From the sequence record PP869411.1: a DNA stretch of 40,312 nt; one strand, given 5' to 3'. The first letter of the stretch is position 1. Every line of letters begins with the position of its first letter. A program made the position numbers and the translations under genes. Below the pieces are notes generated by a model, which did not search any database, was not told the origin of the DNA, and saw only the letters and a program-made list of their open reading frames with translations. Source of the DNA: Enterobacter phage vB_EclP_26. This document shows, in pieces, positions 3,016 through 40,312 of the stretch.

Positions 3016-3474
3016 TCATACGTCCTCCTTGGAGATAGTGAATAGTTGAAATACCTCACCAGTTACAGGACTTTTGGTCCACTCATCGTGGAACTTAGCG
3101 CCTAGCAACTGCAAGAATTTAATGTGAGACTTATTGCCTGACCAAACGTAGTTCCAGATGGTCCCGTATTGGTCTAACATTAAGTCCCTGTACTCAGAGA
3201 TGCGCTGGATAAACTCGCGTCTTCCCTTAGAGTCAAGCAGTTGTACCTGACCCGAGGTAAGGAACCAAACGTTGTCACCTTGGTTTCCACCATACGCATA
3301 CACCTCGCCTGTTCGGTCGGTCAAAACCACAGATGACTCAGTGAGGTGGGATAGCATTCTTTCAGTCATGCCTAAGCAGGACCCAAAGTTTGCTATGGCC
3401 TCGTTGGTATCATCCTTTGATAGGTGCCAGAGGAAATAATGAACGTCCTCTTCTGTAGCCTTACGAATGTGCAT
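3016..3474 (-). CDS. internal virion protein A, T7 gp13 homolog
   Basis: 152 aa; MHIRKA.. resembles the gp13 start MMIRKA; WFLT and IKFLQLLGAKF motifs; synteny. Confidence 0.75.
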   Translation of the reverse strand: MHIRKATEEDVHYFLWHLSKDDTNEAIANFGSCLGMTERMLSHLTESSVVLTDRTGEVYAYGGNQGDNVWFLTSGQVQLLDSKGRREFIQRISEYRDLMLDQYGTIWNYVWSGNKSHIKFLQLLGAKFHDEWTKSPVTGEVFQLFTISKEDV

Positions 3475-3505: not shown

Positions 3506-3525
3506 TCCCTATAGTGATAGTTTAG
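3506..3525 (-). promoter_or_regulatory. phage-RNAP promoter (phi13 equivalent)
   Basis: Minus strand reads CTAAACTATCACTATAGGGA; one of 12 copies of this motif. Confidence 0.8.
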
Positions 3526-6732: not shown

Positions 6733-6773
6733 AAAAAAAAACCCCTCAAGCACCCGAAGGCACCCAAGGGGTT
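6733..6773 (-). terminator. Tphi-like rho-independent / phage RNAP terminator downstream of capsid
   Basis: The minus-strand RNA AACCCCUUGGGUGCC-UUCG-GGUGCUUGAGGGG followed by U9 gives a 13-bp stem (with G:U pairs) and a UUCG tetraloop. Close to T7 Tphi (AACCCCTTGGGG..CTTGAGGGGTTTTTTG). Confidence 0.8.
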
Positions 6774-6777
6774 TCAA

Positions 6778-8197: not shown

Positions 8198-8217
8198 TCC
8201 CTATAGTGATAGTTTAG
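8198..8217 (-). promoter_or_regulatory. phage-RNAP promoter (phi10 equivalent) with T7-like leader hairpin
   Basis: CTAAACTATCACTATAGGGAGACC. The leader GGGAGACCAAGAGAACUGAUACCUCUGGUUUCCC resembles the T7 phi10 leader stem-loop. The RBS is UAGGAGA before the capsid ATG. Confidence 0.85.
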
Positions 8218-9199: not shown

Positions 9200-9219
9200 T
9201 TCCTATAGTGATAGTTAAG
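9200..9219 (-). promoter_or_regulatory. phage-RNAP promoter (phi9 equivalent), slightly variant
   Basis: CTTAACTATCACTATAGGAA; overlaps the 3' end of the portal gene. Confidence 0.7.
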
Positions 9220-11956: not shown

Positions 11957-12020
11957 CTTAAAGTCTCCTCTTAAAGTTTTAACTTAAGTCTATCTTATAG
12001 TCATAACTTAGGTCCTAAAG

Positions 12021-12040
12021 TCCCTATAGTGATAGTTTAG
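12021..12040 (-). promoter_or_regulatory. phage-RNAP promoter (phi6.5 equivalent)
   Basis: CTAAACTATCACTATAGGGA. Confidence 0.8.
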
Positions 12041-13843: not shown

Positions 13844-16014
13844 TAGTGACACTCCTTCCACGTTGGTCCTATCTTACCTTCGGTATCAAGGACGCATTTA
13901 AAGTTATAGAACTCACCCACCTTACGCATAGCAAGCTGAGCAATATTGACGACTTCTTCGGCAATCTCCTGAGTACGACACGCTATCTGTAGCTCATCAT
14001 GTACCCAAGCCATGTACGCGAAGTCTCCATCCCAGCCGTGGACATACCCGGCTTCTTCCAGCATACGCTCGGTCTCGACAATCCAGTGCTTACAGACGAC
14101 CGCACCGTCACCTTGAAGTAATGCGTTCAGTGCTGAGTGTGGCGACCGGATGTGAATGCGGCGACCGTCCAGACCTTTGAGCCAGCGACGTTTCCACTTC
14201 ACAATGTTCTCACCGTCGACCCACTTTGAGTCTGAGATGAGAGTATTCTGGACGGCTTCTCTCAGGTCCTTGATGGCTGGGGTACCCTCAATGAATTTCT
14301 TCATCAGGGCTGAACCTTCTTTCTTACCACCACCAACTATCAGTCCAATCTTCGCGGCCCCTGCACCATACAGGAACGCATAGATGAACGTCTTGGCGTT
14401 ATTACGGAAGGCATCATGGTCGTGGCTAGACTTGTCGCGTGGGACGTTAGGTGCTAACCCGGCGTTGACCGCATTGGCCCAATGGATGTCACCTTCGACC
14501 ACGGTCTTCGCATATTCACCACCATCAAACGGAGATGCACGGTTCCCCAGACAGCGGAGTTCAAGACCTGAGGCGTCGACCCCCACTTGAATCCATGGGT
14601 CTGGCTTGCCATTGTTCTTGTTCCACTGAGCACCAAAAGCACTTCGGCAGATTTCACCCCAAGGAGCACCGTTAGCCGGGACCTGAGCCATGTTCGGTGA
14701 ACTATGGGTCGCACGTCCGGTTACAGCACCACAAGGGTTAATCGACCCGTGCATCCTACCGTCAGGACCAACAAGCTTCAACCATGCGTTCTTACCTTCA
14801 GCCGCCTGACCGATACGCTTCTGGACCACCAGATACTCACGTACCAGCTCTACGCAAGCTTGGGCCTCAGGGTCATCCAGCTTAACGTCTTCCAGCGTCT
14901 CGTCGTCACACTTCGGCTTCCCGGTGTCGGTGAACTCTGTAGGCTCCCACCCACGGTCCATCAGAACCTTAGCCAAGTGGTCCCCGCTTCCGGGGTTGAA
15001 CTCGACGTAGGTTATAGGTGTGAACGGTGCGCCCACCATCGTATCACGGGAGTCTATCTCACAAGGCTCAAGACCTAAGCGCTGAGCTTTGTTCTTCGGC
15101 TTCTTGAAGATGGACCCGACCTTCGGATAAACGACTCGTGGGTACTTCGGCAGGTCCACACCAGTGCGTGGGTGCTTGAAGAACTCCTTGCCGCCTTTAG
15201 GCTGGTACCAGCTACCGAAGGTTGACCGGAGTTTATCTAGCAGCTCTGCACGCTTGATTGACAGCTCTCGATATAAGCCTTCGACAATCTCCGAGTTCAT
15301 CGGATAGCCGTTACGCTCCATCTTCGCACAGGTCCACGCTGCGTCATGTTCCAGACGCAATGCGTACACTGCTTCAAGTCCTGCTTCAGGTGACCCGAAG
15401 TAGAAACTGTCGGTGAGGAACTTCTTGAACAGGGCCAGAGTAACCACAACGTCTTGGACGTTATAGTCCAGCATGTCCTGACTCGGGTGTAACCACTCAT
15501 CGCCAGCCACATACGGGATACCTTCAGCCTTGCATCTGGCAATATAATCGGTCTTGTACTCACCCTTCATCTCACCGAGTCGATAACCCCAAGCCTCAAG
15601 AGACTGTCGGCCCATCATCTTCGGTGGCAGACGACCAGCTTTAACGGCCCCAATGTCCGAGAACTTAATGTTCGGGTACATCAGTCGGCCCATTACCAGC
15701 GTGTCTATCATCTTATGTTTCGGGAAGTTGAAACGCTTACCAAAATACTTCCGCTTAAGAATGTCGATTGCCGGGACGTCATAGTTAATCCCGTTGTGGA
15801 AGACCAGAAGTCCATGCGGCGTGGCCGCAATCTCTTCGACCTTCGCTACATACTCCTTGAAGCCACCGACAATACCAACCATCGGCGCTACCCCGTACTT
15901 CAGGGTCTCATTCGACTCGGCGTTAATCAGGACCCCACAGTGGAACTGAGAGACGGTATCCAAGAGACCATCAGTCTCAATATCACTCCCCCAGATATTC
16001 TGTAAGTCAATCAT
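13843..16014 (-). CDS. DNA polymerase, T7 gp5 homolog
   Basis: 723 aa. Exonuclease and polymerase motifs are conserved with T7 DNAP (FHCGV, VFHNG..YDVPA, LEAWGYRLGEMKGEYK, DYNVQDVVVT, NPCGAVTGRATH, AKTFIYAFLYGAG, DGDFAYMAWVHDE). Confidence 0.98.
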   Translation of the reverse strand: MIDLQNIWGSDIETDGLLDTVSQFHCGVLINAESNETLKYGVAPMVGIVGGFKEYVAKVEEIAATPHGLLVFHNGINYDVPAIDILKRKYFGKRFNFPKHKMIDTLVMGRLMYPNIKFSDIGAVKAGRLPPKMMGRQSLEAWGYRLGEMKGEYKTDYIARCKAEGIPYVAGDEWLHPSQDMLDYNVQDVVVTLALFKKFLTDSFYFGSPEAGLEAVYALRLEHDAAWTCAKMERNGYPMNSEIVEGLYRELSIKRAELLDKLRSTFGSWYQPKGGKEFFKHPRTGVDLPKYPRVVYPKVGSIFKKPKNKAQRLGLEPCEIDSRDTMVGAPFTPITYVEFNPGSGDHLAKVLMDRGWEPTEFTDTGKPKCDDETLEDVKLDDPEAQACVELVREYLVVQKRIGQAAEGKNAWLKLVGPDGRMHGSINPCGAVTGRATHSSPNMAQVPANGAPWGEICRSAFGAQWNKNNGKPDPWIQVGVDASGLELRCLGNRASPFDGGEYAKTVVEGDIHWANAVNAGLAPNVPRDKSSHDHDAFRNNAKTFIYAFLYGAGAAKIGLIVGGGKKEGSALMKKFIEGTPAIKDLREAVQNTLISDSKWVDGENIVKWKRRWLKGLDGRRIHIRSPHSALNALLQGDGAVVCKHWIVETERMLEEAGYVHGWDGDFAYMAWVHDELQIACRTQEIAEEVVNIAQLAMRKVGEFYNFKCVLDTEGKIGPTWKECH

Positions 16015-16030
16015 AATGTCTCCTATAGTC

Positions 16031-16072
16031 TAATCATAAAGGCCGCTACAGCATGTAACGACCTTGAGTCTA
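16031..16072 (-). ncRNA. conserved structured RNA element, class I copy B (RNase III-site-like / 5' transcript hairpin)
   Basis: Minus-strand UAGACUCAAGGUCGUUAC-AUGCU-GUAGCGGCCUUUAUGAUUA has an 11-bp stem. The paralogs at 23373..23414 and 33533..33574 preserve the stem through compensatory changes. Confidence 0.6.
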
Positions 16073-16091
16073 TCCTACAGTGATAGCTTAG
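16071..16091 (-). promoter_or_regulatory. phage-RNAP promoter (variant) upstream of DNAP
   Basis: CTAAGCTATCACTGTAGGATA. Confidence 0.65.
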
Positions 16092-16300: not shown

Positions 16301-18007
<1,707 letters not shown>

Positions 18008-18055: not shown

Positions 18056-18075
18056 ATCCCTAAGGTGATAGTTTA
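18056..18075 (-). promoter_or_regulatory. degenerate phage-promoter-like sequence upstream of primase
   Basis: CTAAACTATCACCTTAGGGA: TATA at -4..-1 is replaced by CTTA, so function is doubtful. Confidence 0.35.
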
Positions 18076-18285
18076 GCTGAAGAAGCCTTTCAGTTGCTCG
18101 GCCTTGGCCTCCAGACGTTTAGCTTCCCAGCTTGCGTCCTGAGATGCCAGTTGCGCAGCCTGCGACTTCGACGCCAGTTCCTCAGCAAGTTTCGCCTCCA
18201 CGCTGGCGACCTTTCGTTCCAGACGCGCAGCACGAGTATAGCCACGCACGACCAGACGACCCAGAAATTCAATAAACTTAATCAT
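18073..18285 (-). CDS. hypothetical coiled-coil protein
   Basis: 70-aa ORF between amidase and primase; Ala/Lys/Glu-rich heptads. Confidence 0.4.
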   Translation of the reverse strand: MIKFIEFLGRLVVRGYTRAARLERKVASVEAKLAEELASKSQAAQLASQDASWEAKRLEAKAEQLKGFFS

Positions 18286-19425: not shown

Positions 19426-20124
19426 TTAGAAGTCGTAGTCACCAGCAGTGTCTTCAGTTGAGCCATCAGACCCATCGTCTTGGAAGTCATCTGCATTGAA
19501 GTCGCCATCGGTAGAGGCCTTGTAGCCATCAGACCCGATGTCTTCATCGTCACCCCAGCCACCGTCACCGCCAGTACCATCGCCAGTCCACTCTTTGAGT
19601 TTGACCAGCAGTACGGATTCGAGTTGCAGCTTGACGCTTGCACCAGTCGCAGCGTTCCACTTGAACGGCAGGACCTTAAACTTGACCTTCAGCTCGGAGC
19701 CTGTGCCAATATTCGGGACGTCACGGATGAGTTTAGCATCGGTGTCGTAGAACCGTAATACGATAGGCTCAGACTTGCCGTCTTTCAGGTAAGACGCAAA
19801 GCATTTGAACTTCAGGGTAACTGTGCCGTCACCGTTCTCAATCCACGGCATGTCGCCTTCACGTGGTTCGATAGGCTTCTTGCCACGCTGAACCTGAGGA
19901 GGGTTCTTCTCGTGGTCTGCGAGTGCTTTCGCATACGCATCGTCGTGAATCTTCTGCAAGACATCAATCATCTTGCGGACTTTTGGGTCTGACAGGTTGA
20001 ACGTTAGGTTGACTTTGTGCTCACCACGCTCGTTGAACTTGGTGTCAGCTTTATTCAGCCAGCTGTAAGGCTCGACCAGACCAGCTACTGGAGTGGTGAA
20101 AGTCTTCAGTTGTTCACGGGACAT
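19426..20124 (-). CDS. ssDNA-binding protein, T7 gp2.5 homolog
   Basis: 232 aa; NPP.V.RGKKP, EGDMP, NGDGT.T.KFKC.AS, GASVKLQLESV.LV and an acidic C-terminal tail ending in F. Confidence 0.95.
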   Translation of the reverse strand: MSREQLKTFTTPVAGLVEPYSWLNKADTKFNERGEHKVNLTFNLSDPKVRKMIDVLQKIHDDAYAKALADHEKNPPQVQRGKKPIEPREGDMPWIENGDGTVTLKFKCFASYLKDGKSEPIVLRFYDTDAKLIRDVPNIGTGSELKVKFKVLPFKWNAATGASVKLQLESVLLVKLKEWTGDGTGGDGGWGDDEDIGSDGYKASTDGDFNADDFQDDGSDGSTEDTAGDYDF

Positions 20125-20156: not shown

Positions 20157-20176
20157 TTCCTACAGTGATAGTTTAG
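20157..20176 (-). promoter_or_regulatory. phage-RNAP promoter (phi2.5 equivalent, TGTAGG variant)
   Basis: CTAAACTATCACTGTAGGAAC; overlaps the gp2 stop. Confidence 0.7.
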
Positions 20177-21273: not shown

Positions 21274-21293
21274 GTCCTACAGTGATAGTTTAG
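21274..21293 (-). promoter_or_regulatory. phage-RNAP promoter (TGTAGG variant)
   Basis: CTAAACTATCACTGTAGGAC. Confidence 0.7.
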
Positions 21294-21442: not shown

Positions 21443-21904
21443 TTATAATGAATCTCTTAAGGCTACTGCCTCGGCTATGGTATCGAACGTACCGTATGAC
21501 TTACGCTTTATCCGCAGTTGCCAGCGACCAGTCCTTGGCTCAAAGTTAACATACTTCTCACCAGACTTGCAGTGGCTACGGACGGCGACGTTTGTCAGGT
21601 TCACTGCCTGAGTTACACACCTTAGGTTCTCAATTCGGTTATCAGAAGGGTCTCTGTTTATATGGTCAATAACCATTCCTTCCGGTATCGGACCGTGAGT
21701 TAGTTCCCAGACTACCCGGTGTGCAAGGAGCTGACCTTTGGTTGTGTTTATAATCCAGTAGCCATCCTTGCGTCGATAGCCTAAGTGTTTACCCTTCAGG
21801 TTGGCGACTCCCGAAGGAGCCGTCCGGTCAACCTTAAATCTTGACTGTAGGATTGTCCTCAGTCCCTCGCCACTGGTCGAATGACGGATGTCGCAAACTT
21901 CCAT
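21443..21904 (-). mobile_element. HNH homing endonuclease (HNH_3-type) inserted after the ligase gene
   Basis: 153 aa; GYWIINTTKGQLLAHRVVWELTHGPIPEGMVIDHINRDPSDNRIENLR. It overlaps the ligase 3' end by 71 nt in another frame. Confidence 0.85.
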
Positions 21905-23414: not shown

Positions 23415-23434
23415 ATCCTATAGTGATAGTTTAG
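23415..23434 (-). promoter_or_regulatory. phage-RNAP promoter (phi1.1 equivalent)
   Basis: CTAAACTATCACTATAGGAT. Confidence 0.75.
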
Positions 23435-24204: not shown

Positions 24205-26886
24205 TTAGGCGAATGCAAAGTCTGAAGACAGGATGTCTTCGATATTCAGTTTACCGCGTGGTGGCAGTGGTGGCAACTTCTCGCGCTGAGACTCATGGAG
24301 CTGGTCCTCAAACTGCTCGTAGAAGTCTTGCAGCACATCGTTGTCACGGTAAGTCTCGACCATCGTCTCACGCACACCCTTGAAGAGTGACTCAGCGTCT
24401 GCCGGGATGGTCCCGAAGCTGTCGTGAATGACCGCGAAGGACATTACGCCATACTTGCGGTGGGTGTGGACTACAGTCTTCCGCAGGTGGCTGCCATCCT
24501 GTGAGTGGACGAAGTTAGGGCTGATACCCGACTCCTGCTTGTGCTTGTCCAGCTCCTTGCTTGACCCTTTGTTGACTGTGGGTTGCAGGTTGAACGTTCC
24601 AAGGAACAGCAGGTTGAGACGTGTGGTATCACGCTTGCGGTATTCCTGCCAGACTGGGAACCCATCGGGTGTGACCCAGTGTACCGGGAGGCAGGGCTTC
24701 AGCACTTCTTTAGTCTTCTTGTCCTTGACTTCAGCAGCCAGCAGTTTCGCTGCGCCCTGTAGCCACTTCATCGCGTCTACCGCAGCAACTACGGTCACAC
24801 TAACCGCATCCCAAATCATCTTAGCCATGAAGCGAGACGCTTGGCTTGGGTCTGTGAACATAGCCCCTTTGCCGTTGTCGATGGCTGGCATCACGGTGTC
24901 CTCGAACACTTGGTCTGCGAACCCATACTCTTTCGACCCGTAGGCCAGAGTCATGACCGAGCGTTTAGTGACCGAGCGCGACATACCGTATTGCAGCCAC
25001 TGACGGGCCAGCTCACGGGTCCCAAGGACCAGACGCTCTGTAATTTCGCCTGTCTTCTTGTCCTCGAAGGTCTTCATCTCGTTGTCGCTACCGTTGACCA
25101 GCAGTTCCTTGAGTTGCTCCTCCACCCGGTCTGACACAATGCGGTAGATGTCTTGGACCTTACCGCTTGGCGTCAGGTTGACCGCATGTCCGCCAACGTG
25201 GTCCCGAAGCATAGCACTGAAGTGTTGAATCCCAGAGCAGGACCCATCGAATGCGATAGGCAGTGAGCAGGAGTAGCTCAGACCGTGGTGCATTACCCCA
25301 GCATACTCGAAGCAGAACGCGAGGAAGCAGAACGGCGAGTCTAACTGGCCCCACCAGTCAATGCTGTCCATCGGACTCTTGGCAGCTGCTAGGATGTTGT
25401 CGTGGTTGTCTTCCACCCACTTGATGCGCTCCTCAAAGGTGACCTTATCCACACCTGCGCAGTTCGCACCGTGCACCTTCAGCCATTTGAAACCGTCAGC
25501 ACCGATAGGCTTGCCAACTGCCAGAGTCAGGAGACCCTTCTGCATGTCGTTTCCTTGCGGGTTGAACATCGGGACCGCATACACTCGACCACGCCAGTCC
25601 ATATTGTACGGGAACCAGATGGCCTTAAACTGTGAGAACTTATTGGCCTGACTCACGATGAAGCTCAATGACAAACGGCGGGACTGTCGGGCCTTCTCTC
25701 GACGGTAGATACCTGCTGCCGCTTTCTTCCACGCTTTCAGTTCCTCCTCAGTCTCCCCTGTGTAATCCTCAGGTTTCATCGGGTCCATCTGCGGGATGTC
25801 TGCGATAGGTGTGTTGTTGAGCTTCTCGACCATGTTCACCACGTCCAAGACCTTCTTGTTCACCTTCCACGGTGTCTGCTGGATGATGTTGACCGCTTCG
25901 TACACCTCCGGCATGTACACGTCTTCATAACGAGCGACCGCAGCCTTTGACCCTAAGCGAATCAATGGGAGTGGTCTGCGACCTTTCGCCCAGTATCCTC
26001 CACCTACCACGCCATTCCACGGCTTAGGCGGGACGACACATGGTTGATACACCGGGGCGATACCTGCCAGTGAGAACCCACGCTGAGCCATCTTCTTGAC
26101 CCAGAAGTCTGACAGGTGGACCATCTCAACGTCTGCCGCAGCGTTGCCTGCACCGTATCGCTTCAGCTCTACCAGCTGTGAGGACTGGATGACCAGCTCC
26201 AGCATCTTGATGCCAACGTGTACCGCTTCAGTCGGACCCCAAGTGCCCCACGCATCAGCCAGCTGCCCCTGCTCAAGCATGGACGCTTCTACTGCCTGCA
26301 TGTAGGCTTTCTTATAGGCCTGACCAGCGCGTTTCTTCAGGTTCTCCGCAATGGTCTTCTTGAAGTGTTCCTGTTCCTGCTCACGGATGCGACCGAAGCG
26401 TATTTCATCTTCAATCGTGCGGCCTATTGCTGAGGCCATTGGCGTAATCGGTACGCCCTCAGGCTTGACCAGCTTCGAGAGGATGACTTTCAGTATGATG
26501 ACCGCAGCCGCCTCAGGTGATACTTTAAGTGAACGGTCTTTAACGGCCTTCTCTTCTGTGCTCAGCATGGTAAACGCCACGCTCGGGCGGGAGGTCGATG
26601 CCTTTCCGTCTGGCCCCTCGTGCCACTCACGAATCGCTTTCGCTATGGTCGGGACCAGCGTTTGCATCAGTGGCTTAGCAACCTGATTGTCTGCCAGTTC
26701 CCCGCGCTCAGTCTGACGCTCAAGGTTCTTAATGAAACGTCGCTCACCTTCAGTGTATGCCTCATGCTCAAGCTGAAGCTGTTTGACTGCGAGGTCCTGA
26801 CCGTAATGGTCAGCCAGTACATTGAACGGCTCAATCGCATTCGATACGTCAGAGAAGTCATGCTTTTCAATCGAGATGACGCTCAT
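24205..26886 (-). CDS. single-subunit DNA-directed RNA polymerase, T7 gp1 homolog
   Basis: 893 aa, highly similar to T7 RNAP across all motifs. The specificity-loop region reads TVNKGSSKELDKHKQESG versus T7 TINTNKDSEIDAHKQESG. The start is taken at an internal ATG (MSVISIEKHDFSD). Confidence 0.98.
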   Translation of the reverse strand: MSVISIEKHDFSDVSNAIEPFNVLADHYGQDLAVKQLQLEHEAYTEGERRFIKNLERQTERGELADNQVAKPLMQTLVPTIAKAIREWHEGPDGKASTSRPSVAFTMLSTEEKAVKDRSLKVSPEAAAVIILKVILSKLVKPEGVPITPMASAIGRTIEDEIRFGRIREQEQEHFKKTIAENLKKRAGQAYKKAYMQAVEASMLEQGQLADAWGTWGPTEAVHVGIKMLELVIQSSQLVELKRYGAGNAAADVEMVHLSDFWVKKMAQRGFSLAGIAPVYQPCVVPPKPWNGVVGGGYWAKGRRPLPLIRLGSKAAVARYEDVYMPEVYEAVNIIQQTPWKVNKKVLDVVNMVEKLNNTPIADIPQMDPMKPEDYTGETEEELKAWKKAAAGIYRREKARQSRRLSLSFIVSQANKFSQFKAIWFPYNMDWRGRVYAVPMFNPQGNDMQKGLLTLAVGKPIGADGFKWLKVHGANCAGVDKVTFEERIKWVEDNHDNILAAAKSPMDSIDWWGQLDSPFCFLAFCFEYAGVMHHGLSYSCSLPIAFDGSCSGIQHFSAMLRDHVGGHAVNLTPSGKVQDIYRIVSDRVEEQLKELLVNGSDNEMKTFEDKKTGEITERLVLGTRELARQWLQYGMSRSVTKRSVMTLAYGSKEYGFADQVFEDTVMPAIDNGKGAMFTDPSQASRFMAKMIWDAVSVTVVAAVDAMKWLQGAAKLLAAEVKDKKTKEVLKPCLPVHWVTPDGFPVWQEYRKRDTTRLNLLFLGTFNLQPTVNKGSSKELDKHKQESGISPNFVHSQDGSHLRKTVVHTHRKYGVMSFAVIHDSFGTIPADAESLFKGVRETMVETYRDNDVLQDFYEQFEDQLHESQREKLPPLPPRGKLNIEDILSSDFAFA

Positions 26887-26963
26887 ACTTAAAGTCCTTA
26901 TAACTGTTGTCTTATCACTAAAGTCTTTCACTTCAGTCCTGACTTATAGTCTTTCGACCTTGA

Positions 26964-26983
26964 GTCCTTTAGTGATAGTTTAG
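26964..26983 (-). promoter_or_regulatory. divergent phage-promoter-like sequence upstream of the RNAP gene
   Basis: CTAAACTATCACTAAAGGAC, followed by an R1-like structured region (GACUCAAGGUC..GACUGAAG). Confidence 0.35.
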
Positions 26984-27625: not shown

Positions 27626-28360
27626 TCACTCGGCTATTGCATTCAGCTTGCCTTGCATCTCGTCTTGATGGTCTGCCTGAGTCCAAGACACCGGGTCCGT
27701 GATTATTAAGCGCCCGTTATTGTCTACCATCACGTTAGCGCGATGAGTGTCGAATGAGGCCAGACCGTAGAAGAACGTGTGAATCTTACGTGCAGTCTTA
27801 GCCAGCTCCTTGATGTACTGAGTCTCGACGTGTGCGAACTCAGCTCGCGCCTCGTTGCCAAGCCACCAAGTCAGTGCAGCGTCTGGCATCTCGCAATGGT
27901 CTATCACTGAGTTGACTACGCGCCACGACACGTTTAAGACTCGCTGCTCGTAGGTCTCACCATCCCGGCAGTAGTCACCGCCGATGTCATTCAGTGAGCG
28001 GTACTTATCCATAGCCACCATGTAGGCCCTGCTGAAGCGCTTGACCAGATGTATGACCGGAAGTCCTGCCATGCCCTCATTCTCTCGGCAGAAGGCCGCA
28101 TACGCAGCGCCTGAGTCATCCTTCTTAAAGCCCACCTTGATAGCGTAGCCCGGCAGGTCCTCATGTTCAAAGGCAGCGGCGAAATGTCCTAAGCCTAACA
28201 GCTTGTAACCGTGCTCTTTAGCCAGTATCTCAAAAGCTCCCCAGCGTGGCTGACCTGCTATCCCGGCGCTTGAGTCCTCAATCTTATAGCACTCCTCGTA
28301 GATGATAGCGTGAAGCTGAGACATCAGGTTATTCATGATTACTTTATCGTGTGCATTCAT
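27626..28360 (-). CDS. serine/threonine protein kinase, T7 gp0.7 kinase-domain homolog (short form)
   Basis: 244 aa; G.GHFAAA, IKVGFKKDDSGAAYAAFCR, ASFD.H and ITDPVS match the T7 gp0.7 N-terminal kinase domain. The C-terminal host-shutoff region of T7 (359 aa) is absent. Confidence 0.85.
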   Translation of the reverse strand: MNAHDKVIMNNLMSQLHAIIYEECYKIEDSSAGIAGQPRWGAFEILAKEHGYKLLGLGHFAAAFEHEDLPGYAIKVGFKKDDSGAAYAAFCRENEGMAGLPVIHLVKRFSRAYMVAMDKYRSLNDIGGDYCRDGETYEQRVLNVSWRVVNSVIDHCEMPDAALTWWLGNEARAEFAHVETQYIKELAKTARKIHTFFYGLASFDTHRANVMVDNNGRLIITDPVSWTQADHQDEMQGKLNAIAE

Positions 28361-28381
28361 CGTGTTGTTTCCTTCTTGTGG

Positions 28382-28411
28382 TTAAGTGACAATCAGTCAG
28401 GCCCCTCAGTC
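28382..28411 (-). promoter_or_regulatory. conserved early-region box, class II copy (R0.5-like position, upstream of kinase)
   Basis: The 26-nt motif GACUGARGGSSCUGACUGAUWGUCACU is shared with 29221..29249. Confidence 0.45.
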
Positions 28412-28428
28412 AAAGGACCTGTAGTCTA

Positions 28429-28749
28429 TCACTCTGAGACCTGCTCTAATACCTTCAGACGCTGTGCTAATACCCACGCACCACCCTGAGATTCTGGCCT
28501 GTCATAGGTCGTTATATCCTCCACCTCGACCTTAAACCATGCCCGACGCTCCCCAGACTTCAGGTCCAGCTTAAGATGTGGAGCGTTCTGCTCAAAGGTG
28601 CAATGCCAGCCCGGACGATATGCAAACCCTTTGGTCGGATGACTCTCTGCCTCGTACCATTCCCCGACCTCAATGACCGCCTTACGGTTGATGAACAGTG
28701 CTCCCAGTGTTCCATCCTTGCGGATTCTGAAGATTTTATATGCAATCAT
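28429..28749 (-). CDS. hypothetical early protein between SAM lyase and kinase
   Basis: 106 aa starting MIAYKIFRIRKDG, with RBS GGGAGGTGGTG 2 nt after the SAM lyase stop; no recognisable T7 counterpart. Confidence 0.6.
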   Translation of the reverse strand: MIAYKIFRIRKDGTLGALFINRKAVIEVGEWYEAESHPTKGFAYRPGWHCTFEQNAPHLKLDLKSGERRAWFKVEVEDITTYDRPESQGGAWVLAQRLKVLEQVSE

Positions 28750-28750
28750 C

Positions 28751-29203
28751 TTACACCACCTCCCAGAATCGACCTTCAGCGTCTTTCGTGAAGCATTCGC
28801 CCTTAGGCGCATCGACCTGCTGGAAAGACCCATTCAGACGTGTGACCCTGTAGCCATCCAGACCTTTGCAGAACATCAGGCCAGCCGTGTGAGTCTGTGA
28901 CTTGTAGACCATCACGCAGTCTTGCTCAAAGTCATTACAGGCCAGCCGCGCAACGTTGATAGCCTGAGCTTTTGACTCACAGCGCACACGATAGGTTCTC
29001 TCTTCAGTGGCGACCTTCTGTCCCTCCTCGCGGTAGCATCCAATCAGCCCGGTGCATTCAAGCACACCGTAGTATTCCGGTTCAGCTTGGAGTAGCGCCT
29101 TAAGGTCTAACTGACGGGCCATGTTAGCCATATCTGACAGGTTAGCACGTGCAGCAGAGACCAGAACATAGAAGACGTTTGCAGGTTCGTTAGTGTAAAT
29201 CAT
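28751..29203 (-). CDS. S-adenosylmethionine lyase (T3 gene 0.3-type SAMase), anti-restriction
   Basis: 150 aa, MIYTNEPANVFYVLVSAARANL..., strongly resembling the T3 SAMase N-terminus as recalled. It is the first early gene, with RBS AAGGA. Confidence 0.8.
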   Translation of the reverse strand: MIYTNEPANVFYVLVSAARANLSDMANMARQLDLKALLQAEPEYYGVLECTGLIGCYREEGQKVATEERTYRVRCESKAQAINVARLACNDFEQDCVMVYKSQTHTAGLMFCKGLDGYRVTRLNGSFQQVDAPKGECFTKDAEGRFWEVV

Positions 29204-30321: not shown

Positions 30322-30435
30322 TTACCACCGCGAGCCGTGAGGCCATCTCATAGTCTTGTCGATGATAATCAGTCCAACGAAGCTTATCACAAGACCAGCG
30401 ATGATGACCACTAGCGCCAATATGTCCTTATCCAT
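30322..30435 (-). CDS. possible 37-aa membrane peptide
   Basis: MDKDILALVVIIAGLVISFVGLIIIDKTMRWPHGSRW with RBS AAAGGAGAG; not in the ORF track. Confidence 0.35.
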   Translation of the reverse strand: MDKDILALVVIIAGLVISFVGLIIIDKTMRWPHGSRW

Positions 30436-30471
30436 CAGTCTCTCCTTTCGTTGATTGTTACCATGATTGCG

Positions 30472-30630
30472 TTAATTACACTGAGTGACCAGAGTACATA
30501 CGAAAGTCTCGACCCACCCTGACCACTGACCTCCAGCAGTAAAGCCAGCAGCAAGTAGAACAGCAGCAAGAAACCTGTACGTAGCTCTATTGGTCGCCAG
30601 AGCTTTAAGAACAGCTTTGGTCTTACCCAT
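30472..30630 (-). CDS. gp19.5-like small membrane protein (52 aa)
   Basis: MGKTKAVLKALATNRATYRFLAAVLLAAGFTAGGQWSGWVETFVCTLVTQCN with a strong RBS AGGAGGT. It overlaps the 105-aa track ORF 30435..30752 in another frame; one of the two is spurious. Confidence 0.45.
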   Translation of the reverse strand: MGKTKAVLKALATNRATYRFLAAVLLAAGFTAGGQWSGWVETFVCTLVTQCN

Positions 30631-30804
30631 GCTACATACCTCCTGTCACTTGGGTCTACTTTAGTTATGAGGGTGTGATTATTACAATCACCCTCTCCAT
30701 CGGTGCGAACCTTAGGTAAGAACTCAGGAGTCTGCCTCCTAAGGTCTTGCATAAAGTATGCATATGCTTATTCATTGAGTCTTTACTATAAGTAACCGGG
30801 GGTC

Positions 30805-30825
30805 TTCCCTATAGTGATAGTTAAG
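30805..30825 (-). promoter_or_regulatory. phage-RNAP promoter (phiOR equivalent, downstream of terminase)
   Basis: CTTAACTATCACTATAGGGAA. Confidence 0.75.
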
Positions 30826-30917
30826 TCCAATCTGTATGTAAAACAATAAGTTACAAGAGATACCTAGCGCACTACTTACTGCTTAGACATGCAGTTTTCA
30901 TGCGTAGGTATTCACTC

Positions 30918-32681
30918 TTAGTGGAACTGTACGTAGGACCCTAAGTCGGACCCATCGTTCTCATCGAACTGTACACGGACCCCGTTGTCCCAGAAGTCAG
31001 TCTTGATTGAGTCGAAGCCCAACCGTGGGTCTTCCATCTGCTCCTCCAGCCACTCCTCAGTGACTTCACGTTGACCCTTGATGGCATCCTTAGCCATAGA
31101 CTCAACGAAGAACTGGACACCGATAGCCAGCGCATCAAGTCGGTCATCATGAGCCAAGGCTCCGCGCTCACGGCTGATACGGGTCATCTGGTAGAACAGA
31201 GAGTAGATAGGATTACGGACGCCGTCCTTATCAGAGGCAGACTGGTAGTCGGACACGATGGTAGCAGCGTTGACGATAAGTCTGTGAGACCCCATGATAG
31301 GCTCCAGAACGTCGCAGATGCGCATCTCCTTCTGACCCTTACTCTTCACCTCAGTCACAGCTGCCGGATGAATACGGGCCGCCACAGGCTTGAATAGCTC
31401 AATGTACATGCCATCACCGAAGTTACCCTCAATCACGTACTCGTTCACCTTCCACTTACGACCAATCTTGGCTAAGTTCTCCAGCGTAGAGTCCTCGTAC
31501 CCACCGCGCATACCACCAGCTTCCATCATGAAGATGTAGCCGTTGAGTTGGTACAGCACAGTGTAACCAGTCTCATCCTTACCACGACCACTAGGGTCAA
31601 TGACCAGAATCTTCTGGGTGTAAGAACTGAAGGCAGAACCTACAGTCTGATACGTATGGTAGGTGTCACCCATGAGTCCCACGTTAGGAACGTCGTCACG
31701 CTTGTTCTGACCGTTCGGAAGCCACTGGTAGACCATAGGGCTGGACGCTGGGTCCAAGTCCGCTACGATGAGGTCACGAAGCTTCAGTGGGTACTTCTCG
31801 GCATCCCCTAAGTTAGGGTTAAGCATGAACTGTAGAGCGAAGCCAGCCTTACCGTAGGACAGCTCACGCTCCCTCAGGTCCTCATCATCGAAGCGAACCG
31901 GGTCAGTAGGCAACCAGAAGTAACCCTCCGGGTCGGCCTCCAGTTCTGCCTGAAGCATCGGAGCCAGACGGTCGCCGTATGACTTCCAGTCCTTCGTATC
32001 GCGTGGATAGCGAGCAGGCCAGATAGTCGTCGTATAGCCACGACCTTCCAGCTCACGGTAGAGGGTCATCTCGGTCTGAGGGGTACCCAGATAGATAACC
32101 GTACCACCCGGCTTCAGGATTGCATCGAACTCCTTCACCAGCTCGGACAGTCGGTCTCGGGCGGCTTGAGTCGCTGAGTTACCGGGGACCTCGACGTCAT
32201 CGGCAATCAGGATGTCAGCACGGCTACCAGTTAACTGACCAGTGATACCCACGGACTTAACCGAAGGTGAGTGGTCTGGTTTGGCTGGCCCAACGTCGAA
32301 GCTAATCACCGCGTCTCGCTGTCCCTGCTTAGGCTTCAGCTCTTGTAGTTGAGGCATCAGGTCGATGATACGCTTGATGAAGATGGAGTTAGCGTCAGCT
32401 CGTTCCTTTGAGGCCGACACAATCATGAACTTCAAGTCCGGGTTGTTCCATAGCTTCCAGACCACGAATGCACACGTGATGAAGGACTTCCCGATACCAC
32501 GGAACGCCTGCAAGATGAAACGCCTGTTGTCGCCAGCTGAGAGCTTCTTCGCCATATCAATCTGGCACCGGGTCGGGACTGGTAGGCTCAATGCCTTCCA
32601 CAAGACGAACAGGAAGAACACAAAGTCTGCCTTCATCTTCGCTGTCATCTCGTCCTGACGGGCTTGTAAGTCTTTACTCAA
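30918..32681 (-). CDS. terminase large subunit, T7 gp19 homolog
   Basis: 587 aa with extensive identity to T7 gp19 ([101 protein letters not shown]). Confidence 0.98.
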
Positions 32682-33133
32682 TGCTCACCTCCTTTCTCCT
32701 GCTGCAACGCTCTCACGGTCCCCTGAAGGGCCTTAATCCATGCGTCGCCTTTCAGTCCGATGGCGATAAGACGCTTAGCATCTCGGTCGTCAAGTTCGGC
32801 GTAACCATCAATGACGCATCGACCGTCACTTTGCGGGGTTCCACTCGTGGGTTTGACCCGGAGCTGCAACCGCCGATTGTCAGACTTAAGGTCAGCAACA
32901 ATCCTATCAGTGCTGCCTTCCAGCGCGGAGAGTTGGTCCTGATAGTCTTTGGACACTTTGTTAACTTCGGTCTGTACTGAACTACGCTGCTGCTCAGCTG
33001 CTTCCAGTTTTGTGATGTACTCATTGTTTACCTTCGCCTCCCACTTAGTATCAGCTACCCAGTAACCAGAGGCGAACAGGAGTCCTGCCACCAGCCACGG
33101 AATGCACCTCTTAATTAATGTTAACCACACCAT
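32678..33133 (-). CDS. Rz-like i-spanin, T7 gp18.5 homolog
   Basis: 151 aa with an N-terminal TM segment; [36 protein letters not shown] and [10 protein letters not shown] match T7 gp18.5. Confidence 0.9.
32752..33024 (-). CDS. Rz1-like o-spanin embedded in Rz (+1 frame), T7 gp18.7 homolog
   Basis: [24 protein letters not shown] lipobox; C-terminal [19 protein letters not shown] matches T7 gp18.7 [19 protein letters not shown]. Confidence 0.8.
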   Translation of the reverse strand: MSTSQNWKQLSSSVVQYRPKLTKCPKTIRTNSPRWKAALIGLLLTLSLTIGGCSSGSNPRVEPRKVTVDASLMVTPNLTTEMLSVLSPSD

Positions 33134-33515
33134 ATACCTCCTTCAGTATTCTGGCGTGAGTCTCCTCGGCCCACTTGCTGACAGACTCTAAGTCCTCAGT
33201 TGTAGGGAACCGTTCGACTACTCCACGCATTGATATCTTGCCCCAGTAGACGAGGCAACCCTTAGTCTTGTTGAACCTTCTGTAAACTCCCTTTGGAATC
33301 TCACGGCTAGACTTTGTGTTAGCTTTATTGGCACCCTTCGGGATTGCCCGTAGGTTACTCAGCTCATTGTTGAGAGGGTTGCGGTCTATGTGGTCAACAA
33401 CGAATCCAGCAGGAACAGGGCCATTTGCGGCCTCCCATACCAAACGATGCACACCGTGTACCTTCCCATCCAATGTAACTTTGTAGTAGCCTCCGCTTAA
33501 ATACTGACCATCCAT
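33111..33515 (-). mobile_element. HNH homing endonuclease (HNH_3-type) inserted between small terminase and Rz
   Basis: 135 aa starting MDGQYLSGGYYKV, with RBS GAGGAG; HRLVWEAANGPVPAGFVVDHIDRNPLNNELSNLR. Its 3' end overlaps the Rz start by 23 nt. T7 has no gene here. Confidence 0.85.
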
Positions 33516-33532
33516 ATAGTTCTCCTCAATGT

Positions 33533-33574
33533 TAATCATAAAGGCCACTACATATAGTAATGACCTTGAGTCTA
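33533..33574 (-). ncRNA. conserved structured RNA element, class I copy A (R18.5-like position)
   Basis: UAGACUCAAGGUCAUUAC-UAUAU-GUAGUGGCCUUUAUGAUUA; 11-bp stem; located just 3' of the gene 18 stop. Confidence 0.6.
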
Positions 33575-34073: not shown

Positions 34074-36239
34074 TTAACCACGTAACTGAATAATCTGAAG
34101 AGTGACGCCTGAATCACACGTCAAGGTAATGACGTTAGACGCATTCTTAGAGGATGTTACGTATTTTGTCGCCACAAGATGTACCATGGCGGAGCTAGTC
34201 GCAAGACGCTGCCTTGTATCGATGGTGAACTGTACGGTCCTGTTACCAACGGCCTCATAAGCAGTAACCTCAATCTTAGGAGCTAGATATCCATAAGCTG
34301 CCGGGTCTATTGTGGCGGTAGTTGCACCCGGAGAGATTATGTTTGCGGTAGAGTATCCGTCTATAGGTGACCATACTCGACCAACGAACGCAGTAGGAAC
34401 GATGTTGTTCTTATATGACTGGATGACAGGTACTCGGTCTGCCGAACCTGAGGATACAAGGTCGTAGTACAGCATGAAACTATCAGCCGCACGCGAGAAG
34501 TCACAGTTAGTGATTCGCGCAATTAGAGGTTTAGAGGTAGCAGCCTCGGTAAGTAGAGCCGTGAACAGAAGGTTATCTCCAGCAGTCAGACCGTCCATTA
34601 CAACCTCACGGTGCAGCCCTGTTCCTTGGTCAGCTCGCGCCACAATCCTGTCGGTGTTGAAGAACGTACCAGCTAAGACCTTGACAGTCTCAGAGTTCGC
34701 CCAGCGTACTGCGTGAGTCGCTCCGTTACACACACCAAAGGTTACGACACAGCTTCTGGTACCATACACACCAACTACCGGGTACTTCGTGGTCCCATTC
34801 CACTCAAAGTGGTCGATGTGAACAGACACATGGCCTCCCTGAGCAAGACCTCCAGTCACTGCCCCCGATACGCGTACACCGAGCTGTAGACCATTGATGC
34901 CTGTGTGTCGGAGTTTTCCAAGGTATTTGACCTTGATGGACCCGAAGGTCTTGGCGTTGACACCCATGCAGATACCCTCGTCGTCTGTGCCACGAACGTA
35001 CCCGATGTCTACGTGGCAGTCTTCACAGTCGCCATCAAAGTTAATGCCCCTGTGGTCAGACTCTTCGACACCTCCCTTACCAATAACGTAGCAACGCTTA
35101 ACGTGGTGGGCACCAATACAGTTGTTATTGTGTAGCTGCGGAGCATTGGCTGAGCTGAAGATGGTGGACAGCTTACCATCCAGAACGATGATGATGTTCT
35201 CCCAGTATTCAGTCAGGACCGTGAAGTCACCAGCATCCGGGTCGACTCGTGGGGTAATATCGAACATCCCGCCACTCTGACCGAGGACTGTAGCTGGCTC
35301 ACTTGCGTCCTTGTAGTAACCGATGATGTGGACACCAGTTGCAATGTGGAGCGTGAAGTTGTCGCGATACGGGTTAATGGACGAGCAAAGTCGGTAGTTA
35401 CCAGGAGTCTTAACCGTGAACGTGGAGTAATACTTACGGCGAAGGACTTTACGCATCAACAAGGTGTTGGCCCATGCAGCCGCAAAGTTGTAACTATCTG
35501 TAGGCTCAAGTCCCATCTTAACGAGGTCTGCCACTGGGTCCAGATAGATGAGCCAGCCGTCCCCTGACTTAATGTAGAACCGTGGGTCATTAGTTGGCTC
35601 AGCTGTTACATACTTCCAGTCGGTTGTGACGGTAGTTTTATTGAACAACGTGCGGACGAGTTGACCGTTCTTTGGGTTGATTGCAGGCACACCAGCTACA
35701 GTGTCAACCAGAACCATACCTCCACCAATCAGACTTGCGCCATCCGGTAGAGCCAGTCGAGCCAGAGTATCTAAATCCCCAGCAGATGCCAGAGCGTCGA
35801 TGACCTCGTTGTACAGGTTCTCTGTCTCATCGCGGTAACCCTTAACAATCTCGATACCGTCCTCGATAGCCTCAACAGCAGGCCGGACGTAAGAGTCAAT
35901 CAGGTCACGACCCTCTTCGGCGATATGGATAGCCTGAAGCTCAGATACCGTCAAGTCTTTGGCTGTAAGTACCGAACCGTCAGCGAATGTGACCATCGGC
36001 TCAGAGGACGTAAAGCGGTTAATCTGAAGAGTATCGAACCCAGTCTGGTCAGCCAGAATCTGAATCTCAGTGGACGTATTGAATGAGTAGTCATTGACCA
36101 CACGCAGGACCTGAGTACGCTCTGGGGTGACCGATGTGTCGACCAGCGTAACCACGACGAAAGGTCTGGCAAGATAGTCGAACGGGATTCGATATGTAAG
36201 CTGTCCGGCAGGGTAACGCTCGGTTACTGTTGTAGTCAT
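34074..36239 (-). CDS. tail fiber / tailspike: T7 gp17-like N-terminal adaptor plus beta-helix (depolymerase-like) C-terminal domain
   Basis: 721 aa starting MTTTVTE, with RBS AGGAGG. The N-terminus IPFDYLARPFVVVTL...IHIAEEGRD matches T7 gp17 residues 1-150. The C-terminus is rich in G/N/V/T repeats (GINGLQLGVRVSGAVTGG, HVSVHIDHFEWNG), typical of parallel beta-helix tailspikes. Confidence 0.88.
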   Translation of the reverse strand: MTTTVTERYPAGQLTYRIPFDYLARPFVVVTLVDTSVTPERTQVLRVVNDYSFNTSTEIQILADQTGFDTLQINRFTSSEPMVTFADGSVLTAKDLTVSELQAIHIAEEGRDLIDSYVRPAVEAIEDGIEIVKGYRDETENLYNEVIDALASAGDLDTLARLALPDGASLIGGGMVLVDTVAGVPAINPKNGQLVRTLFNKTTVTTDWKYVTAEPTNDPRFYIKSGDGWLIYLDPVADLVKMGLEPTDSYNFAAAWANTLLMRKVLRRKYYSTFTVKTPGNYRLCSSINPYRDNFTLHIATGVHIIGYYKDASEPATVLGQSGGMFDITPRVDPDAGDFTVLTEYWENIIIVLDGKLSTIFSSANAPQLHNNNCIGAHHVKRCYVIGKGGVEESDHRGINFDGDCEDCHVDIGYVRGTDDEGICMGVNAKTFGSIKVKYLGKLRHTGINGLQLGVRVSGAVTGGLAQGGHVSVHIDHFEWNGTTKYPVVGVYGTRSCVVTFGVCNGATHAVRWANSETVKVLAGTFFNTDRIVARADQGTGLHREVVMDGLTAGDNLLFTALLTEAATSKPLIARITNCDFSRAADSFMLYYDLVSSGSADRVPVIQSYKNNIVPTAFVGRVWSPIDGYSTANIISPGATTATIDPAAYGYLAPKIEVTAYEAVGNRTVQFTIDTRQRLATSSAMVHLVATKYVTSSKNASNVITLTCDSGVTLQIIQLRG

Positions 36240-36287: not shown

Positions 36288-36307
36288 TTCCTATAGTGAT
36301 AGTTTAG
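36288..36307 (-). promoter_or_regulatory. phage-RNAP promoter (phi17 equivalent)
   Basis: CTAAACTATCACTATAGGAAA; overlaps the gp16 stop. Confidence 0.8.
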
Positions 36308-39300: not shown

Positions 39301-40194
39301 GGCCTTCTCTTGGTCTAACTTCTGGTTCTCCAGCGCTAGGTTGATGAGTTCGGTCAGGTTCTGTGGCGAGCCACCAGTGATGACTCCGTAATACTGAGGC
39401 ATGACTCCGGCCTGACGAATTTGGTCTAACTCATCGCGGGACCACTTGTGGTTATTCCAACGGGTAGGGTTAAACACATCGCCAATGACGTCTAGTGAGT
39501 CCTCGGTCTGACCAGCTCGGATAGCCACGCCGACCATTGAGTTCTTCACCTCTGCTTCAGCTGCACCGCCGAACCCGAACCAAGTAGAGCGGTCTGCTCG
39601 TTGGTCCAATGTCTCACCAGTGGACTTATAGAACTGCTCGCCCATTGACTCAACCGGAGCAGCAGGTGCCTGACCTTCCACATTCAGACCAGTAACACCC
39701 GGAAGGTCCTGACCCAAGGAGACCTTAGGCTTGGCCTTCAGGCCCTCGGTCAGTGCGTCAAAAACGTTAGCGCTTACTGGTGGAGTCTTTGGGGAGATAC
39801 CGTTGAGTGCGCGAGACACTCCCTGCTGGTAGACTTCTGGGTTATAACGTGAGCCAGTCTCATGGAAGCCTATAGCTTCAGCCAGAGATGCCAGAATGTC
39901 AGGGTCCTGCAAGTCGATACTTTGGGTCGCCGGGATGCCAGTAGCCGCTACGATTGAATCGATGTAGGCCTGTGTGTCATTCTCGTTAGGAGGAGCCCAG
40001 CGTCCGATAATCTTCTCGATTGAGTCGTAACCTTGGCGACCGTAGCTCATCAGGTTCTTAGCCAGAGCGCGGACACCAGAGTCAGGAGTGTCAAACGTTA
40101 CGAAGGACCCATCGTCCCCTGTGGCCCCTTCCCATTGGTCCTTAGACTTACGGATGTTCCCGATGTTGTTGTTGCGAATACCACGAGTCGCCAT
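36304..40194 (-). CDS. internal virion protein D, T7 gp16 homolog with divergent N-terminal domain
   Basis: 1296 aa. Colinear with T7 gp16 from about residue 200 onward (RLEARETARN, VRSPTGMQSGASGK, AKNAYMG, NTTNYLLDA, MDLWR, ALSRSS). The first ~130 aa lack the T7 SLT motif. The ATG follows the gp15 stop across the window junction (GGAGTAACATAATG). Confidence 0.93.
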   Translation of the reverse strand: MATRGIRNNNIGNIRKSKDQWEGATGDDGSFVTFDTPDSGVRALAKNLMSYGRQGYDSIEKIIGRWAPPNENDTQAYIDSIVAATGIPATQSIDLQDPDILASLAEAIGFHETGSRYNPEVYQQGVSRALNGISPKTPPVSANVFDALTEGLKAKPKVSLGQDLPGVTGLNVEGQAPAAPVESMGEQFYKSTGETLDQRADRSTWFGFGGAAEAEVKNSMVGVAIRAGQTEDSLDVIGDVFNPTRWNNHKWSRDELDQIRQAGVMPQYYGVITGGSPQNLTELINLALENQKLDQEKAKAGTGAQLAAGVIGAGVDPLTYVPVAGQVGKGGKLVNKMFTVAAQSGALAGASEIARTSVAGGDAHVAEAIMGGALFGGGMTAIADGLGRVLGKSTPNEFAGPATRLEARETARNTDGQDLSRIPLREGEEVFEHNGVRFADVPNEPGSVRLEDGSILIGENPLNPKTRQVFDNVIEPERAAAGVNLGGMTEIGLKLLRSQNPEIRGLASDLVRSPTGMQSGASGKIGTTASDVFERLRAVDHRFYNDIDDAVTEALKDPYFQTSFWRDNGAFRQDIYQRVSLAIEDGTGDLKSQLTPGELKVYDLLKNQFDAKREMMENPAMFGRADAVSIFPGSRFKGTYVPHVYSNQMKELYIRELGSNEALQEAIKKSWLTSYASRPEVKKRVDEALLEADPTLTPEGLAAAVEKYANDKAYGISHTDQFSRSSVMEENIQGLVGLENNSFLEARNLFDSDMSIVLPNGETFSVNNLREWDMDKIVPAYNRRVNGDISIMAGTGKTTKEMKDAVETLMNKAGDDGQLKGEVSTLRDTLKILTGRARRDGADDAAFSTVMRTMTDLSFFAKNAYMGVQNLTEIGGMLARGNVRAMLHGIPMFRDLAFRNKKVGASEIKDLHNIVFGKELDDSIRPSKQDVIDRLRAYSDLSKTSATALGSAKYYTGELAARSPLTKVLNSTTNYLLDAGRQGFLSDVVEHSLTGSKRRFDDRWLKTAGISPEQWKGIKSLIRESVTRGPDGKMTIKDKKAFSQDPRAMDLWRMGDTIADETLLRPHKLSNMDAKAYGPLAKTVLQFKNFVIKSINGRTMRSYYNATKNNRAIDQALAVTMSMGLAGLYYMAQAHVKAYAMQDGRDRDYLKQALDPTMIGYAALSRSSHLGGPLGVANILGGIAGYQDAQMLRSSILPRSPTEKPDRAITFGAAKSDPVMGVVSNFLQQVPAFGYAANVGASAYNLAGYLKADTRVDERDYMTGMYNTFRELVPNDPITQKLLLGTFEEQGIHIKD

Positions 40195-40312
40195 TATGTT
40201 ACTCCTTACCGATTAAGGTGTTTGCGATACCCTCCAGTGAGACGTCTTTGTACATACCGCCCCGCTCTTGGACTCTCGCTTCTGCTGCATTGCGTCGTTT
40301 ATCACCAGCCGC

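Follow-up and report, generated by a model that had tools for sequence, protein, structure and literature searches.

The RNA polymerase gene and its promoters

The 40,312-nucleotide sequence of Enterobacter phage vB_EclP_26 (PP869411.1), the whole of which is referred to here as the window, encodes on its minus strand, at 24205..26886, a T7-like single-subunit DNA-dependent RNA polymerase (RNAP) of the K1F/Kayfunavirus type, the product of gene 1, and it carries, on the same strand, twelve copies of a promoter-like sequence. In the original prediction, this pair was proposed to be a new RNAP with a promoter specificity of its own. The comparisons presented here point elsewhere. The window almost certainly contains a K1F-type (Kayfunavirus-like) RNAP/promoter system with a T7-style transcription programme, and the pair is one that is already known, since the K1F specificity class is already on record, its biochemistry has been studied, and synthetic biology makes use of it.

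That the locus encodes a single-subunit phage RNAP, as had been claimed, is well supported. Translated from an ATG, the protein is 893 amino acids (aa) long and matches the Pfam families RNA_pol (PF00940; 358.5 bits, with a gathering cut-off of 22) and RPOL_N (PF14700; 56.4 bits, with a gathering cut-off of 30.1), and its residues 1-893 align end to end with residues 1-883 of the T7 RNAP structures 1aro/1cez, with a score of 1273 bits. Residues D547, K641, Y649, H794, and D822, corresponding to the T7 residues D537, K631, Y639, H784, and D812 responsible for catalysis and nucleoside triphosphate discrimination, are invariant in an alignment of eight RNAPs. The fold, the domains, and the catalytic residues are shared with T7 RNAP, from which the enzyme differs by, among other features, a 2-residue insertion in the region of the AT-rich recognition loop. 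The mechanically called open reading frame (ORF) of gene 1 extends further, to a GTG at 26931 (908 aa). This start was rejected in favor of the ATG at 26886, which is preceded at ~8 nt by a Shine-Dalgarno sequence (TAAGGA), from which the N-terminus aligns residue for residue with that of the RNAP of Escherichia phage K1F (Kayfunavirus K1F), also 893 aa in length, and which produces an exact match to UniRef100_A0AAU7VFR0 (Enterobacter phage vB_EclP_26).

Throughout the window, the 20-mer CTAAACTATCACTATAGGGA is found in 11 copies if up to 3 mismatches are allowed and in 12 copies with up to 5, all of them on the minus strand, with 0 expected by chance as judged by shuffled sequences; on the plus strand no such site is found even at ≤5 mismatches. 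When a position weight matrix (PWM) built from the 12 sites was run over both strands, these sites scored 29-38 bits, while no other position reached more than 13 bits, a gap of 16 bits, which confirms the twelve promoter-like sites originally claimed. Nine of the coordinates originally given for them are correct, while three (16071, 18056, and 30805) are off by 1, the true starts being 16072, 18057, and 30806. The sites follow the pattern (A/C)CT(A/T)AACTATCAC TATA GG(G/A)A, of ~20 bp, the written-out consensus being ACTAAACTATCACTATAGGGA, with positions -16, -15, -13, -11 to -5, -1, +1, and +2 invariant among the 12 and positions -14, -12, -4 to -2, and +3/+4 variable. The element at -12 to -8 reads ACTAT in 11 sites and GCTAT in one. 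The core CACTATAGGGA (-7 to +4), which is shared with the T7 consensus, was said to be present in all twelve copies, but its exact form is present in only four (3506, 8198, 12021, and 30806), the other eight deviating at -4 to -2 or at +3/+4, a fact half-acknowledged in the original prediction through its mention of natural variants. The deviations are not evenly distributed: CACTATAGG is kept by the six promoters of late or structural genes (phi6.5, 9, 10, 13, 17, and OR), while the six promoters of early or middle genes all deviate, with TGTAGG, TAAAGG, or CTTAGG, or with a G at -12. Every promoter is located 35-111 nt 5' of a start codon on the same strand, and the genes behind them are 1, a small ORF after 1.05, 1.6, 2.5, 4, 5, 6.5, 9, 10, 13, and 17, to which a phiOR-like site past the terminase is added.

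As the evidence in the window itself amounts to sequence repeats alone, one could argue that these 20-mers are not promoters but dispersed repeats of another kind, for instance signals for packaging or replication, or the ends of mobile elements. We consider the probability of this close to negligible. Against it stand the strict single orientation that matches gene direction, the placement ahead of start codons, and a -7 to +4 core in common with the T7 promoter. In addition, the phiOR-like site taken with one more 5' base (30806-30826) reads ACTTAACTATCACTATAGGGA, the very 21-mer that has been validated biochemically as the minimal promoter of Escherichia phage Ro45lw, with the use of purified Ro45lw RNAP and with the +1 G mapped by deep sequencing (JBC 2025, PMC12272871), and in the annotation of the Ro45lw genome these sites bear the names phi1.6, phi2.5, and phi6.5.

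A known specificity class

The nearest deposited RNAPs are those of Pectobacterium phage LET1, Escherichia phage IMM-002, and Enterobacter phages EP1 and IME278, at 96.3-96.5% identity over the full length, which corresponds to ~30 substitutions. Amino acid identities to the window RNAP are 96.5% for LET1, 96% for IMM-002, 95% for Ro45lw (41 substitutions), and 92% for K1F (70 substitutions, no gaps), compared to 64% for T3, 63% for T7, 61% for K11, and 33% for SP6. Overall, an identity of 90% or more to the window RNAP is reached by the RNAPs of 211 phage records. The promoters tell the same. In our scan of the K1F genome (NC_007456), from which the K1F consensus was derived in this analysis, the same 20-mer is found 11 times, with 2 perfect copies, and the derived consensus is identical to that of the window. 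Eleven of the 12 window sites pair with K1F sites, those before genes 1, 1.1, 1.6, 2.5, 4, 6.5, 9, 10, 13, and 17 and the one after gene 19, and both Ro45lw and IMM-002 possess the same promoters, down to the variants at the corresponding positions. The variants TGTAGG, TAAAGG, and CTTAGG, pointed out originally as a natural series, are therefore real but not particular to vB_EclP_26, as they are conserved in its relatives. Beyond these genomes, a scan of the IMG/VR viral contigs yields AACTATCACTATAGG in at least 120 stretches, many belonging to contigs ~40 kb in size, and a full-text literature search for it retrieves the papers on Ro45lw and Sparklingdew. The 23-mer TAATAACTATCACTATAGGGAGA, taken to be PK1F, matched nothing in a full-text literature search.

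In T7 RNAP, specificity is set by residues R746, N748, R756, and Q758, reading promoter positions -12 to -7, as known from structure and covariation (PMC11880802, PMC3458549), with 748, 756, and 758 established as the key positions acting with promoter positions -12 to -8 (PMC11880802). The equivalent of T7 Q744-I761 in the window is the specificity-loop segment of codons 755-772 (TTRLNLLFLGTFNLQPTV; 24571..24624, minus strand, with codon n computed as 26886-3(n-1) down to 26886-3n+1), where, according to the alignment, R756, N758, N766, and Q768 take the places of the four T7 residues, in this order. The position of T7 756 is occupied by Arg in T7 and T3 and by Asn in the window RNAP, and the set of Arg, Asn, Asn, and Gln at the contact positions is identical in the window RNAP, K1F, Ro45lw, and IMM-002. 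The loop peptide on which the claim of a divergent specificity was built, TVNKGSSKELDKHKQ, is present in the protein, but it represents the distal tip of the hairpin and not the base-contacting residues, which fall in RLNLLFLGTFNLQ, just upstream of it.

A truly new promoter specificity, arising from a divergent loop and producing an orthogonal pair unlike that of any phage RNAP characterised so far, must be weighed against these data. It is true, as originally stated, that the upstream element is unlike those of T7, T3, SP6, and K11, the -12 to -8 sequence being ACTAT here versus CGACT in T7. The identity of the RNAP to the enzymes of these phages is only 33-64%, and the 54-aa loop region is found in identical form in no phage record, the best match being 51 of 54. 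However, K1F, Ro45lw, and IMM-002 share the consensus, the contact residues, and the variants at the same positions, phage records with RNAPs at least 90% identical number more than 200, and the promoter motif is as widespread in IMG/VR as described above, making a new specificity very unlikely. According to the original prediction, an identical promoter consensus combined with a near-identical RNAP in an already characterised phage would remove the novelty. Both K1F and Ro45lw present this combination, and the claim of a new pair is not supported.

The loop region is not without changes of its own. Compared to close relatives, the private substitutions in or near the hairpin are K752R, S764T, and K776S, with S764T being the only window-specific one within codons 755-772; S764T and K776S are among the substitutions that separate the enzyme from that of Ro45lw. 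All three lie outside the key positions 748, 756, and 758, and they are not accompanied by a change in the promoter, speaking further against a new specificity. As the consensus is the same as in phages possessing S764 and K776, there is no sign that these hairpin changes alter specificity.

Some considerations do weigh against a simple assignment to the K1F class. The combination of K752R, S764T, and K776S is found in none of the ~50,000 phage records searched, and an effect of these substitutions on RNAP activity is conceivable in formal terms. Transcription in this phage is predicted from its sequence, the K1F consensus comes from our own scan of NC_007456, and the ranking of the variants by strength is drawn entirely from the analogy with class II and class III promoters of T7. 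One specific proposal would be that the three substitutions modestly shift the affinity, the strength, or the tolerance of the enzyme (for example, toward a G at -12 or toward the TGTAGG variants). We regard this as very improbable, but if true, the hairpin changes would define a slightly shifted K1F-type enzyme, with some use as an engineering variant.

The K1F specificity class, to which we assign the pair, has been exploited on multiple occasions. In the work of Temme et al., T7 RNAP received the hairpin of K1F (T7 Q744-I761) and was combined with a K1F-subfamily promoter, the resulting enzyme showing 17-fold induction and orthogonality versus the T7, T3, and N4 variants (PMC3458549). Within the grafted region, the window RNAP possesses L760 and T764, where K1F possesses M and S. 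The 'resource allocator' incorporated a sigma fragment derived from K1F (PMC4299498), and native K1F RNAP along with PK1F, used in both E. coli and Halomonas, proved orthogonal in vivo, showing little cross-talk with MmP1 and VP4 (PMC12218169). For another Kayfunavirus, a 2026 genome paper describes CTWAACTATCACTATAGG repeats as promoters (PMC13298934). The overall significance of the system in vB_EclP_26 is accordingly small, as it represents a known specificity class in an Enterobacter phage that has been deposited. What is gained is an explicit promoter map of this phage, of 12 sites with predicted +1 positions, along with the recognition that the K1F-type group keeps a phage promoter directly before its own RNAP gene, and that the non-consensus variants are conserved site by site across the compared phages, which suggests tuned promoter strength.

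Proposed transcription programme and the promoter map

By analogy with T7, host RNA polymerase would first transcribe the early region, including the 0.3-like gene, the 0.7 kinase, and gene 1. The phage RNAP would then recognise the twelve ~20-bp promoters and initiate at the +1 G, presumably binding at -17 to -5 and melting -4 to -1, as expected by comparison with T7 and with published work on related phages. The hairpin would read -12 to -8 (ACTAT) through Asn, Asn, and Gln at the positions of T7 748, 756, and 758, and -7 would be read by the conserved Arg at the position of T7 746. The replacement of T7 R756 by Asn accompanies the change from C to A at -9, where Asn would be expected to pair with A and not with C. 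The split between the late consensus sites and the early and middle variants resembles that between class III and class II promoters of T7, suggesting, plausibly, a graded strength.

The promoter upstream of gene 1 (CTAAACTATCACTAAAGGAC; 26964..26983, minus strand, as are all those listed below) would start transcription at the G at 26967 (+1), 81 nt 5' of the ATG of the RNAP gene. The identical variant is present at the syntenic sites of Ro45lw (2401) and IMM-002 (3400), and the K1F counterpart is at 2475. The non-consensus core CACTAAAGGAC is the same in Ro45lw and IMM-002, with Ro45lw carrying the TAAAGGAC variant of the window before its gene 1, while K1F has TATAGGAC (TAAAGG in the window versus TATAGG in K1F). 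Having a phage promoter immediately before gene 1 sets this genome apart from that of T7, which is not known to have one there, and its presence suggests positive feedback on the RNAP gene. The sequence AAGTATCACCTGAGG at 26511, inside the RNAP gene, was also considered as a promoter and was rejected, not being among the top PWM matches.

Next in the direction of transcription is a phi1.1-like promoter (CTAAACTATCACTATAGGAT; 23415..23434, +1 at 23418), with a syntenic K1F site at 5553 that has the same +1 to +10, GGATTAGACT, followed by a phi1.6-like promoter (CTAAACTATCACTGTAGGAC; 21274..21293, +1 at 21277), located 39 nt before the ATG of gene 1.6 (21238) and with a K1F counterpart at 7184. 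The phi2.5-like promoter (CTAAACTATCACTGTAGGAA; 20157..20176, +1 at 20160) is 5' of the SSB gene 2.5 (ATG at 20124), and its TGTAGG variant is also found at K1F 8500. Likewise, the CACCTTAGGGA variant of the phi4-like promoter (CTAAACTATCACCTTAGGGA; 18057..18076, +1 at 18060), which is 5' of the primase/helicase gene 4 (ATG at 18004), is also found before gene 4 in K1F (10867) and IMM-002 (12028). The promoter of the DNA polymerase gene 5 (CTAAGCTATCACTGTAGGAT; 16072..16091, +1 at 16075, ATG at 16014), scoring 31 bits, carries both a G at -12 and the TGTAGG core. It is a point of difference from K1F, in whose genome it has no counterpart, and a scan of part of Ro45lw, allowing ≤3 mismatches, turned up no phi5-type site. 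IMM-002 shares the window promoters with the phi5 variant included, the latter being located before its DNA polymerase gene (14018), and the variant is also present in 4 IMG/VR loci.

Among the late promoters, the phi6.5-like one (12021..12040, +1 at 12024) is an exact consensus and is identical at K1F 17178, including +1 to +10, GGGACTTTAG. A degenerate promoter-like sequence, CCTAAGTTATGACTATAAGAT, is found at ~11995-12015 on the minus strand, 29 nt downstream of the phi6.5 start, and is conserved at the equivalent place in K1F (17223). With only 13 bits, and with a fold no better than that of shuffled sequences (z = -0.8), it was rejected as a promoter, and it may represent the remnant of a duplicated promoter, or else a site of processing or regulation. 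The phi9-like promoter (CTTAACTATCACTATAGGAA; 9200..9219, +1 at 9203) is 5' of the scaffold gene, with a K1F counterpart at 19999. The phi10-like promoter (8198..8217, +1 at 8201), an exact consensus 5' of the major capsid gene (ATG at 8090), is identical at K1F 20998, including +1 to +10, GGGAGACCAA, and the phi13-like promoter (3506..3525, +1 at 3509), another exact consensus, is 5' of gene 13 (ATG at 3474), with a K1F counterpart at 25322. The phi17-like promoter (CTAAACTATCACTATAGGAA; 36288..36307, +1 at 36291) precedes the tail-fibre gene (ATG at 36239), and its K1F counterpart at 32598 has the same +1 to +10, GGAAACGGGA. The phiOR-like promoter (CTTAACTATCACTATAGGGA; 30806..30825, +1 at 30809) is located past the gene for the terminase large subunit. 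An ORF of 105 aa (30435-30752, minus strand) lies 57 nt downstream of it, with no PHROG match at 1e-5; its place is that of gene 19.5 in T7, although the stretch could also be terminal sequence that is non-coding.

Genome organization

As determined by tblastn with K1F proteins, the window represents a T7-like genome on the minus strand, circularly permuted, in which genes 15-14-13-12-11-10-9-8 through to 1 follow one another with rising coordinates, and genes 16-19 are found at 40146-30921. The permutation cuts gene 15. Positions 1-127 are identical to 40186-40312, which is an assembler overlap, the true circle being 40,185 bp, and the physical ends, along with the direct terminal repeat, must be located in the non-coding stretch at ~29.3-30.4 kb. 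The layout is like that of T7, down to a Tphi-like intrinsic terminator after gene 10. This predicted terminator (6738..6775, minus strand), positioned between the capsid gene and gene 11, consists of a stem of 17 bp with a T run behind it, and its position is that of a terminator annotated in Ro45lw. Scans of the window against Rfam and for tRNAs found nothing.

The early region (27626-29203, minus strand) encodes a 0.3-like protein, carrying the PHROG family label of an S-adenosylmethionine (SAM)-dependent methyltransferase, and a 0.7-type protein kinase. A sigma-70-like site is present at 29440-29411, ahead of the 0.3-like gene, in a scan barely above shuffle expectation. Several of the early genes are unlike those of K1F. 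The K1F Ocr protein, used as a tblastn query, found no match in the window, and the K1F genome as annotated is without the kinase.

Two free-standing ORFs for HNH endonucleases are present on the minus strand, one at 21443-21904, overlapping the end of the ligase gene, and another at 33111-33539, between the small terminase and the Rz-like genes. Neither stretch was matched by the K1F tblastn queries, among which the annotated HNH of K1F, located inside its DNA polymerase gene, was not included. The DNA polymerase gene of the window is uninterrupted and encodes a protein of 723 aa. The tail fibre is another feature distinguishing this phage from K1F. Only the N-terminal 110-150 aa encoded by gene 17 (34074-36239, minus strand) match K1F or known tail-fibre families, while the receptor-binding remainder is divergent, its cluster at 90% identity consisting of 2 members. 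This divergent part is the likely determinant of host range.

Phage identity and related database records

The RNAP, the DNA polymerase, the major capsid protein, and the tail-fibre protein are each identical to a UniRef entry for Enterobacter phage vB_EclP_26 (taxid 3161160), which is classified by NCBI with the unclassified Caudoviricetes and on which a literature search found no paper. In megablast comparisons against a copy of INPHARED that does not contain vB_EclP_26 itself, the best whole-genome matches are 84-86% identical at the nucleotide level over 75-89% of the genome, and as the identity and coverage are limited to these values, the phage probably belongs to a species different from its nearest relatives. 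The overall similarity to these matches is ~65-75%, as a rough product of identity and coverage and not a VIRIDIC value. The genus criterion of the International Committee on Taxonomy of Viruses is a nucleotide similarity of at least ~70% across the genome. From its sequence relationships, vB_EclP_26 appears as a distinct species, placed within or next to the genus Kayfunavirus.

RNAPs of the enterobacterial Kayfunavirus type are also carried by records named 'Staphylococcus phage MBBL139' and 'Enterococcus phage IME_EF3' and by a partial protein from 'Mesorhizobium ciceri' (WP_236383611.1), all three of which are probably mislabelled or contaminated. The RefSeq name 'N4-like RNA polymerase', given to these T7-like enzymes, is a misnomer.

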